Notes under the pieces: generated by a model | Databases searched by the model: none | Told to the model about the DNA's origin: nothing | What the model saw: only the letters and a program-made list of their open reading frames with translations | Sequence record: NC_054916.1 | Length of the DNA stretch: 64,000 nt | Direction: 5' to 3' (one strand) | Source of the DNA: Escherichia phage vB_EcoM-G28 | Made by a program: the position numbers and the translations under genes | In this document: one piece after another, positions 15,847-17,241 of the stretch | Layout: each line of letters starts with the position of its first letter | Numbering within the stretch: the first letter of the stretch is position 1

Positions 15847-16626
15847 TTAATTAAAAATATATACTTCGTCAGTTCCATTCTTTTCTTTGGAATGATATAT
15901 GTTAAAGACGTATTTTTTATTAAGATGCTTAACATTATATTTTTTAGACCATTCTTTAAGAAGAGTGTTTTCCTTTCCGTGATGCTCTAAAACATTCGAC
16001 AGTCCAAATTTTATTCCTCTGTCATTTAAAGAGTCTAAAAGATTTAAAAGGTCTTTTTCTTCGTCTTCTGACCAAAATTTATTATAATCAGCGACTGTTA
16101 TAAGATACGGAGGATCCACATATACAAAATCGCCATCTAGAATTTTGACATCTTTAAAATGCAATGAGCTAAAAATTATTTTATCACAATTTTGTTTAAA
16201 GTGATTAAAACGTTTTTCACTATTTTTGTTTATGGTTCTTTTTCCAAATGGAGTAGTAAAATTTCCTTTGTCGTTTATGCGAATCATATTACTAAACCCA
16301 TGAAAATGAAGAACATAAAGTAAAAGAGGATCTCTAGTTTTATTATAATCTTCACGTAATTTCAAAAACTCTTCTTTTGATGTTTTTGATAATTTGTATT
16401 GCTTTATTACTTTTAAAACGTCATCCCATGACACGCTAATAAGACGTTTATACATTTCAATAATTGGTTCTTGAATATCATTAGCCAATACAGGACCATC
16501 GACATTCAAAGATACTGATAACCCTCCGCAAAATAAATCTACGAATCTGTCATATTTTGGAAAGTGAGACTTAAGTTCAGGTAATAATGATTGTTTATTA
16601 CCTGTATACGCAATAGCTCCTAGCAT
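15847..16626 (-). CDS. dam: DNA adenine methyltransferase (Dam, N6-adenine, GATC-type)
   Basis: 259-aa ORF; SAM-binding DLFCGGLSV and catalytic DPPY motifs. Confidence 0.9.
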
Positions 16627-17186
16627 TATATTCTCTCATTTATTGCAGCAAAAAACGAATTATATAATTCTTCATCATATGTATTTGATAGTAATACTAA
16701 CACGTTTTGTGATTTAGCATATTCATTAAACCTTGCTTGGATGGTTGGATTATCAGTAAATGATTCTCTTTTTGTCCACTTATTACGCGGATAATATCCG
16801 CATGGCAAAAAATCTAATATCATCAATGACACAGGATTTTCAGTTTTTGTGTATTCTTTTAATTTATCTTTATCTTCCAGATATATTCCAACCGAATCAA
16901 TGGCTGTACCTCCACCAACTTGGTGTTTGATTTCAATTATATGCTTTTTACCATTGCGAGAAATGACAATATCAAATCTTCTAGTACGCTTCTTAGTTGT
17001 AAAATTCGAACAAAACAAATTATTTGATTTTTCAGTATCGTCGATTAAAACCATTTTTTCTTGATAACTAACTGAACAATCAGTGAAATATTCTTTTACT
17101 TTATTAAGTATGAAATTTTCAACTACGGCAGATATTTTATATGAATCTCCGTTTAAAGCCATTTCATGTACAATTTTATTAATCAT
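16626..17186 (-). CDS. hypothetical protein with PD-(D/E)xK nuclease-like motif, translationally coupled to dam
   Basis: 186-aa ORF; [19 protein letters not shown] (D-x12-E-x-K in hydrophobic strands); stop TAA overlaps dam ATG (TAATG); GAGGA RBS; own early promoter. Confidence 0.45.
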
Positions 17187-17211
17187 TATATTATCCTCAG
17201 CAGTTTATTTT

Positions 17212-17241
17212 ATAATACCACAGCAAGCTGAGAAAGTAAAC
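17212..17241 (-). promoter_or_regulatory. early promoter, GTTTAC-N18-TATTAT, upstream of nuclease-like ORF and dam
   Basis: plus-strand ataata 17212-17217 and gtaaac 17236-17241. Confidence 0.55.

Follow-up and report, generated by a model that had tools for sequence, protein, structure and literature searches.

The window analysed here, a 64,000-nucleotide (nt) stretch of Escherichia phage vB_EcoM-G28 (NC_054916.1), derives from a Tequatrovirus with ~99% identity to phages vB_EcoM_P8 and BMB16 across 3.4 kb. Its minus strand carries, in the order 61 (primase), 186-residue open reading frame (ORF), dam and 56 (dCTPase), a small uncharacterized gene immediately upstream of a methyltransferase gene, as established from the ORF listing and Pfam assignments (Table 1; all coordinates are positions in the window). 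The product of dam is 97.7% identical to T4 Dam. An earlier annotation made from the letters alone (the sequence-only reading) had proposed that the 186-residue ORF encodes a PD-(D/E)xK nuclease in a restriction-modification-like arrangement with Dam. The analysis reported here argues for a nuclease fold and for a lasting partnership of the two genes, and leads us to propose, more tentatively, that together they may form a restriction-modification-like cassette.

The ORF possesses its own T4-type early promoter, as the sequence-only reading had stated: the promoter elements can be read directly in the sequence, a consensus promoter scan recovers TTTACT-17-TATTAT with a TG extension upstream of the ORF, and the homologous site in phage ASO78A, with 1 mismatch, is annotated as a T4 early promoter. 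A hairpin terminator ends the gene 61 transcript just upstream of this promoter, so that promoter, ORF and dam constitute a separate early unit. At the downstream end the minus strand reads ...GAGAGAATATAATGCTAGGA, and the stop codon of the ORF overlaps the dam start codon by one base in the TAATG arrangement noted earlier.

Multiple observations establish that the ORF is a genuine gene under selection and no chance reading frame. It matches phrog_8706, a family of unknown function, end to end (E 1e-115), and copies of 95-100% identity occur in ~150 complete phage genomes, every one annotated as hypothetical. The ratio of nonsynonymous to synonymous substitution rates (dN/dS) for the ORF amounts to 0.12-0.35 when distant alleles are compared and to 0.06-0.08 for close ones, the latter being similar to the 0.03 of dam. 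The sequence-only reading knew of no description of this gene and allowed that it might be a known uncharacterized ORF; in T2 and the ~150 genomes the gene is present only as a hypothetical. Our literature searches found no paper on the fold of the ORF product, on an obligate linkage to Dam or on the deletion of the ORF in T4.

Table 1. Features of the ORF-dam locus and its surroundings (window positions).
Feature	Position	Strand	Details and basis
soc	14940-15185		
Gap between soc and gene 56	15186-15267		segF absent
Gene 56 ORF (dCTPase)	15268-15801	-	TTG start in ORF listing, 177 residues
dam, 259-residue D12-class GATC N6-adenine methyltransferase	15847-16626	-	Pfam MethyltransfD12, E 1e-50
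Promoter+ORF+dam unit, ~1.43 kb, absent as one block from RB51-type Tequatroviruses	15847-17277	.	RB51 annotation and junction alignment; boundaries approximate
TAATG junction	16624-16628	-	ORF TAA (16628-16626) and dam ATG (16626-16624), one common base; sequence
186-residue ORF, PD-(D/E)xK nuclease-like, phrog_8706	16626-17186	-	ATG start; homologue of T2_032 and ACG-C40_0031
Segment missing in T4, 549 bp (early promoter, Shine-Dalgarno sequence, codons 1-159)	16709-17257	.	window/T2/T4 three-way alignment
Codons of the predicted catalytic motif	16926-16973	-	D72 16971-16973, E85 16932-16934, K87 16926-16928
Codon of helix-1 glutamate E23	17118-17120	-	invariant in family
Shine-Dalgarno sequence GAGGA	17194-17198	-	7 nt before ATG of the 186-residue ORF; sequence
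T4-type early promoter	17212-17241	-	GTTTAC (17241-17236)-N14-GTGG-TATTAT (17217-17212); sequence read
66-residue hydrophobic ORF, phrog_2024	17291-17491	+	RB32ORF030w
Hairpin terminator of gene 61	17306-17325	-	
Gene 61 (primase)	17488-18516	-	

An AlphaFold2 model of the ORF product, built from an 8-sequence alignment, is reasonably confident (predicted local distance difference test (pLDDT) 78.8, predicted template modeling score (pTM) 0.79) and comprises a helix at residues 15-33, strands at 38-47, 67-77 and 80-88, helices at 96-113, a strand at 119-124, a helix at 147-160, a strand at 163-167 and a helix at 172-185. These elements contain the alpha-beta-beta-beta-alpha-beta core of PD-(D/E)xK nucleases, the structure that had been suggested as a check of the nuclease prediction, with D72 on strand 2 and E85-x-K87 on strand 3; the D...ExK peptide that had attracted attention in the sequence-only reading is present as residues 71-89. 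Foldseek searches of the PDB, likewise suggested as a check, returned nothing but PD-(D/E)xK nucleases, among them VC1899, AF1548, Bax1, R2 endonuclease, Can2, McrC, Hjc and RecU, all at low TM-scores (template modeling scores). E23, D72, E85 and K87 are invariant in 9 sequences, with members down to 29% identity, and the same holds in the family for H88, Q89 and a G-T-A-I-D-S loop. The core fold, the strand-2 acid, the strand-3 ExK and the helix-1 glutamate are thus all in place, and the ORF product is very probably a nuclease of the restriction-endonuclease fold with an intact predicted active site.

Sequence searches against solved structures gave only noise at E>0.8 with phmmer and no matches with the family profile, and an NCBIfam scan of the ORF gave no meaningful match. 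No specific structural or sequence similarity to the MutH/Sau3AI family was found, and comparison with the MunI/EcoRI-like type IIP endonucleases, a structural class, yielded at most 12% sequence identity and no sequence-level relationship. Many PD-(D/E)xK domains have turned into binding modules, and the ORF product, co-translated as it is with Dam, might likewise descend from a nuclease and serve, without catalytic activity, as a DNA-binding partner of Dam or as its regulator; with all four active-site residues invariant across the family, however, and with the Dam of T4, a phage without the ORF, working unaided, we regard such a role as extremely improbable.

The strongest evidence for a nuclease-Dam pairing comes from the distribution of the ORF family and its linkage to the methyltransferase. 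An exhaustive HMMER profile search of 1.84 billion representative proteins gave 12 matches, several of them fragments or chimeras (P0008, P0010, P0016 and P0017 were discarded as chimeric or repetitive artefacts), and no HMMER-level bridge to bacterial restriction enzymes was found among these representatives; scans of the IMG/VR and JGI metagenomes for the family contributed phage loci only. All members with readable context (T2; Klebsiella phage KPV15 and a metagenomic relative; P0006, P0002, P0009, P0013, P0011, P0005 and P0003) lie directly 5' of a gene for a D12-class methyltransferase with 50-98% identity to the window Dam, so that the adjacency holds in 10/10 family lineages, and even P0013 and P0011, only ~30% identical to the window ORF, still adjoin Dam. 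The two genes abut or overlap by 1-35 nt across the family, the sole exception being T2 with a 13-nt gap. The pair is found in three neighborhoods, namely 61-ORF-dam-56 in Tequatrovirus and relatives, rIIB-denB-x-ORF-dam-...-gp52 in KPV15, and ORF-dam-rIIA-rIIB in the P0013 contig, and the pairwise identities of ORF and Dam are correlated (r = 0.86), the ORF being the faster evolving. ORF and Dam therefore move and evolve as one unit.

Loss at this locus is asymmetric. Among 180 phage records with a T-even-type Dam (at least 90% identity), 146 have an intact ORF-dam junction and 33 have the deletion endpoint of T4; one record, Escherichia phage Elenatom, combines a T4-type ORF deletion with a dam split into 229- and 37-residue ORFs, the sole broken dam seen. 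No ORF without Dam was found in any phage genome or contig surveyed. The methyltransferase thus occurs alone and the endonuclease was never found alone, an asymmetry of modest statistical power that is also seen in restriction-modification and toxin-antidote pairs. On a broader scale, ~500 of 695 records matching the flanking genes lack the whole promoter+ORF+dam block, and in over 260 T4-like phages the Dam is a more distant one; tblastn detected the ORF in almost none of these. The restriction-modification-like arrangement advanced in the sequence-only reading is accordingly supported by one promoter, adjacent genes, three contexts, co-divergence and asymmetric loss.

In RB43, Matisse, Phi1 and AhFM11, dam is preceded by a gene unrelated to the ORF. 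In AhFM11 (locus 1537-2007), the slot between primase and dam holds a genuine denV (pyrimidine dimer glycosylase, Pfam E 7e-17) with a 7-nt overlap with dam; the slot upstream of dam takes different DNA enzymes in different genera.

Comparison with T2 and T4, which had also been recommended, located an ORF homologue in T2 and only a 3' remnant in T4 (about codons 159-181, by tblastn and alignment). The segment missing in T4 is bounded by imperfect ATC(G/A)CAAA repeats, and the recognizable remnant indicates that the orphan-Dam state of T4, whose near-identical methyltransferase stands without the upstream nuclease gene and early promoter, is derived and not ancestral. A 1988 paper on T2 dam reportedly described the T2-T4 difference as a 536-bp insertion in T2. 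The T2 ORF itself has a 1-nt deletion in a T run (T2 locus 2037-2060 versus window 16626-16650) and is shortened to 181 residues. This deletion is common to T2 and the T4 remnant; as a result, the conserved C-terminus gives way to ...SFLLQ, and the end of the ORF is no longer coupled to the start codon of dam. With this C-terminal frameshift, the classic T2 allele may be impaired, and the occurrence of the T2-type frameshift in the T4 remnant suggests stepwise decay, with the frameshift preceding the deletion.

A nuclease gene that is present or absent among close relatives in the same hypervariable neighborhood is also characteristic of the free-standing homing endonucleases of T-even phages, such as SegF between 56 and soc in T4. 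If the ORF were a homing endonuclease or selfish gene like T4 seg and mob, relatives without the cassette would be cleaved close to their 56-61 junction, repair would then spread the gene, and dam would travel along as cargo. We consider this very unlikely, because the absence of the ORF in T4 is an imprecise deletion that removed the promoter and left the 3' remnant, and because precise presence and absence concerns the whole ORF+dam unit rather than the nuclease gene alone. Moreover, the ORF family lies outside the known T-even classes GIY-YIG and HNH, and its permanent partnership and long-term vertical co-divergence with Dam do not resemble horizontal sweeps.

The nearest sequence family detected is that of DpnII and LlaDCHI, which are GATC-specific enzymes. 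The top Pfam match of the window ORF is DpnII (PF04556; E 0.0048, 16.7 bits versus a gathering threshold of 23), and when nine members were scanned singly, DpnII ranked first for four of them, the best being P0009 (22.5 bits, E 8.3e-5). These matches always fall in one register, protein residues ~11-112 aligning with profile positions 143-233 of 278. The PADLOC type II restriction endonuclease model (REase_II) gives E 5e-6 to 7e-5. A tblastn search with P0009 against 72,556 plasmids (7.3 Gb, E<=10) returned exactly two matches, both corresponding to the LlaDCHI restriction gene, as carried by pSRQ700 or in nearly identical form (E 0.5; P0009 and R.LlaDCHI are 27% identical across 116 residues), and homologues of the pSRQ700 LlaDCHI restriction protein carry PF04556. 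Profile comparison with hhalign gave E 8.6e-4 against LlaDCHI alone. With close DpnII sequences the alignment spanned 87 columns (E 2.3e-4, probability 44%), and with 15 diverse DpnII sequences it spanned 47 (E 1.2e-3, probability 19%); column-shuffled controls scored 14.6 +/- 2.6, and 0 of 150 reached the real score of 31.7. Since the broader alignment lowered the probability from 44% to 19%, membership of the DpnII family is not claimed.

In a consistent register over helix 1, strands 1-3 and the next helix, the ORF aligns with the DpnII, LlaDCHI and MboI family (PF04556) at a (K/R)RFD motif, at the Glu that closes a hydrophobic strand and at a GGG(S/T) loop, and the DpnII enzymes are likewise paired with a Dam-family GATC methyltransferase. 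They differ in length (~290 residues, range 280-300, versus 186), in gene order (nuclease then a single methyltransferase in the phage pair, versus two methyltransferase genes followed by the restriction gene in pSRQ700) and in distribution, the ORF family being limited to T4-like phages. DpnII and LlaDCHI thus appear to be the closest detectable relatives of the ORF, with neither the score nor the full-length architecture of a family member. A genome search for DpnII homologues yielded only sequences of at least 69% identity and no added diversity. DpnII genes were also sought beside plasmid relatives of the T-even Dam; the nine loci examined instead held either type IIS systems of the AlwI or FokI kind or pairs of methyltransferases. 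Among plasmid proteins, those most similar to T-even Dam, at 35-42% identity, are AlwI-/FokI-type IIS methyltransferases from Firmicutes, and Dam matches on enterobacterial records (plasmid-borne Dam-family genes and some chromosomes filed as plasmids) show 22-31% identity, mostly over about two-thirds of the protein.

No other 4-bp palindrome is as depleted in the window as GATC, of which 65 sites are observed versus 214 expected (observed/expected ratio (O/E) 0.30). The O/E is 0.08-0.44 in short loci of cassette-bearing lineages, whereas it is 0.76-1.07 in the Dam-only T4-like phages Matisse, Phi1 and RB43 and 0.56 in AhFM11, a contrast that is confounded with phylogeny and with hydroxymethylcytosine. 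Avoidance of GATC by enterobacteriophages is already known and is usually ascribed to MutH (PMC5014478, which credits McClelland 1984 and Deschavanne and Radman 1991). The depletion fits selection by a GATC-directed nuclease in the gene pool, and we treat it as compatible with such a nuclease without counting it as support.

Our results suggest the following mechanism. The ORF product would be a small, catalytically competent type II-restriction-like PD-(D/E)xK endonuclease that forms, with Dam, a restriction-modification-like (toxin/antidote) early cassette, with a single early mRNA yielding both proteins shortly after infection. Dam would keep the phage's own GATC sites N6-methylated, and the nuclease would cut DNA in the cell without this mark, probably at GATC or at a site that includes GATC; its targets would be Dam-less relatives that enter or co-infect the cell, together with other foreign DNA that is under-methylated. 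Under this mechanism the nuclease gene could be lost, leaving an orphan Dam as in T4, and Dam could not be lost while the nuclease is present. That the ORF acts in a functional module with Dam we consider probable. A restriction-modification-like cassette of a type II-like nuclease and a protective Dam is in our view the best explanation, one to be held tentatively; methylation-sensitive cleavage at GATC-type sites is possible, and here our reservations are somewhat greater. We infer that the ORF product cleaves DNA, that it does so at GATC and that methylation blocks it, and its biological target is likewise inferred; it is the weak similarity to DpnII/LlaDCHI that suggests that ORF and Dam may recognize the same sequence.

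A number of observations weigh against this proposal. With respect to the sequence similarity, the DpnII profile is unmatched in 5 of 9 members, including all of the three most distant; no member of the ORF family reaches the Pfam DpnII gathering threshold (23 bits); and the hhalign probabilities are just 19-44%. The DpnII family has ExN followed by GSK, versus the canonical ExK of the ORF, which has no GSK lysine, and the ORF lacks ~140 N-terminal positions of the DpnII profile, including the LDSNxRKNRxG region, and ~45 C-terminal ones. With respect to linkage, dam is broken in just 1 of 34 ORF-less records, so that the count of zero ORF-only records has little power. The same start/stop overlap with dam is found for DenV of AhFM11, ORF064 of Phi1 and ORF256w of RB43; as upstream-gene overlap is ordinary in T4-like genomes, the TAATG overlap alone is weak evidence of special coupling. 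Furthermore, the adjacency in Tequatrovirus and close relatives follows largely from conserved gene order, just two further contexts being independent.

Such generic overlap, and the derivation of most pair observations from one syntenic location, would also be expected of a methylation-independent phage nuclease that serves host or foreign DNA degradation, recombination, repair or counter-defence and that lies beside dam through joint acquisition and conservative gene order. The fold and active site are equally compatible with such an enzyme, and the fold matches include the non-restriction proteins Can2/VC1899, Bax1, McrC, Hjc and RecU. However, the pair stays intact in three neighborhoods despite changed flanking genes, the two proteins co-diverge, deletions strike the ORF and spare dam with the reverse never seen, and the sole detectable sequence family is one of GATC restriction enzymes. 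A methylation-independent role is, on balance, rather unlikely.

Further objections to the restriction-modification-like cassette concern its biology. All known hosts (Escherichia, Shigella, Salmonella, Yersinia and Klebsiella) are Dam+, so that a methylation-sensitive GATC enzyme would be without a target in the host chromosome. DNA containing glucosyl-hydroxymethylcytosine resists most type II enzymes, and self-protection by Dam may therefore be unnecessary. Viable dam- mutants of T2 are said to have been obtained in Hattman's laboratory, an objection tempered by the fact that the T2 ORF allele is a C-terminal frameshift variant. Lastly, a carrier protected by methylation would not be expected to avoid GATC, yet GATC is strongly depleted. 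The GATC-depleted carrier genome (O/E 0.30) would be accounted for by a methyl-directed nuclease with DpnI- or MutH-like logic, which would cut or nick methylated or hemimethylated GATC, thereby destroying Dam-methylated host DNA or starting recombination-dependent replication, the phage being spared by glucosyl-hydroxymethylcytosine and few GATC sites. Such an enzyme would have a target in Dam+ hosts, and the tight coupling to Dam fits it as well; we rate it as quite unlikely.

A more specific form of the cassette proposal is that the T-even pair comprises a compact GATC-directed, methylation-sensitive endonuclease able to cut the hydroxymethylcytosine DNA of related phages, with the co-translated Dam immunizing carriers, and that it serves as an exclusion weapon or gene drive against Dam-less relatives, which would be cut on co-infection or superinfection. 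We regard this version as unlikely. If it were true, the presence of Dam in T-even phages would have an explanation, as would the orphan Dam of T4, an antidote retained once the nuclease was gone, and part of the strong GATC depletion of the Tevenvirinae.

Virus-encoded restriction-modification is exemplified by the GATC system R.CviAI/M.CviAI of chlorovirus PBCV-1, in which, as proposed for the ORF-dam pair, a lytic virus carries a nuclease gene beside the gene of a methyltransferase by which the viral genome is marked. Unmethylated DNA of the host is degraded in the chlorovirus case, whereas the hosts of ORF-dam phages are already Dam-methylated and the phage DNA contains glucosyl-hydroxymethylcytosine, so the target of the ORF product must differ from that of the chlorovirus enzymes. 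Restriction-modification pairs, including virus-encoded ones, are already known; what is new is a minimal nuclease family that is confined to the Tevenvirinae and co-translated with Dam, in virulent phages whose DNA is modified.

The Dam enzymes of T4 and T2 have been textbook orphan methyltransferases for 50 years, with no clear role for the phage. The present comparison identifies the nuclease-Dam pair as the ancestral and commonest state at the locus and T4 as a deletion derivative, so that the lone methylase of T4 may be the leftover of a phage-borne restriction-modification pair. The purpose of T-even Dam thereby becomes testable: does it act as antidote to a restriction-like nuclease that the phage itself carries? 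Should the nuclease prove active, virulent phages with modified DNA would possess a module of the restriction-modification type, probably used in phage-against-phage conflict, and the ORF would represent a minimal 186-residue restriction-enzyme-like family, possibly capable of cleaving hydroxymethylcytosine DNA and useful as a reagent. If the nuclease is methylation-independent, the finding shrinks to an uncharacterized accessory nuclease.

Additional features were noted around the locus. The 66-residue hydrophobic ORF on the plus strand has a strong AAAGGAGG ribosome site. It is convergent with gene 61, whose stop it overlaps by 4 nt, and it encloses, on the opposite strand, the terminator hairpin of that gene. 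Its DNA is ~95% conserved in T4, the reference record of which annotates nothing from dam to 61. Homologues of gene 56 are annotated from an internal ATG (MAYFNE..., ~172 residues), which places its true start probably at 15786. The gap between soc and gene 56, which in T4 holds the GIY-YIG homing endonuclease gene segF, is without it here, constituting a second nuclease-gene polymorphism less than 2 kb from ORF-dam.
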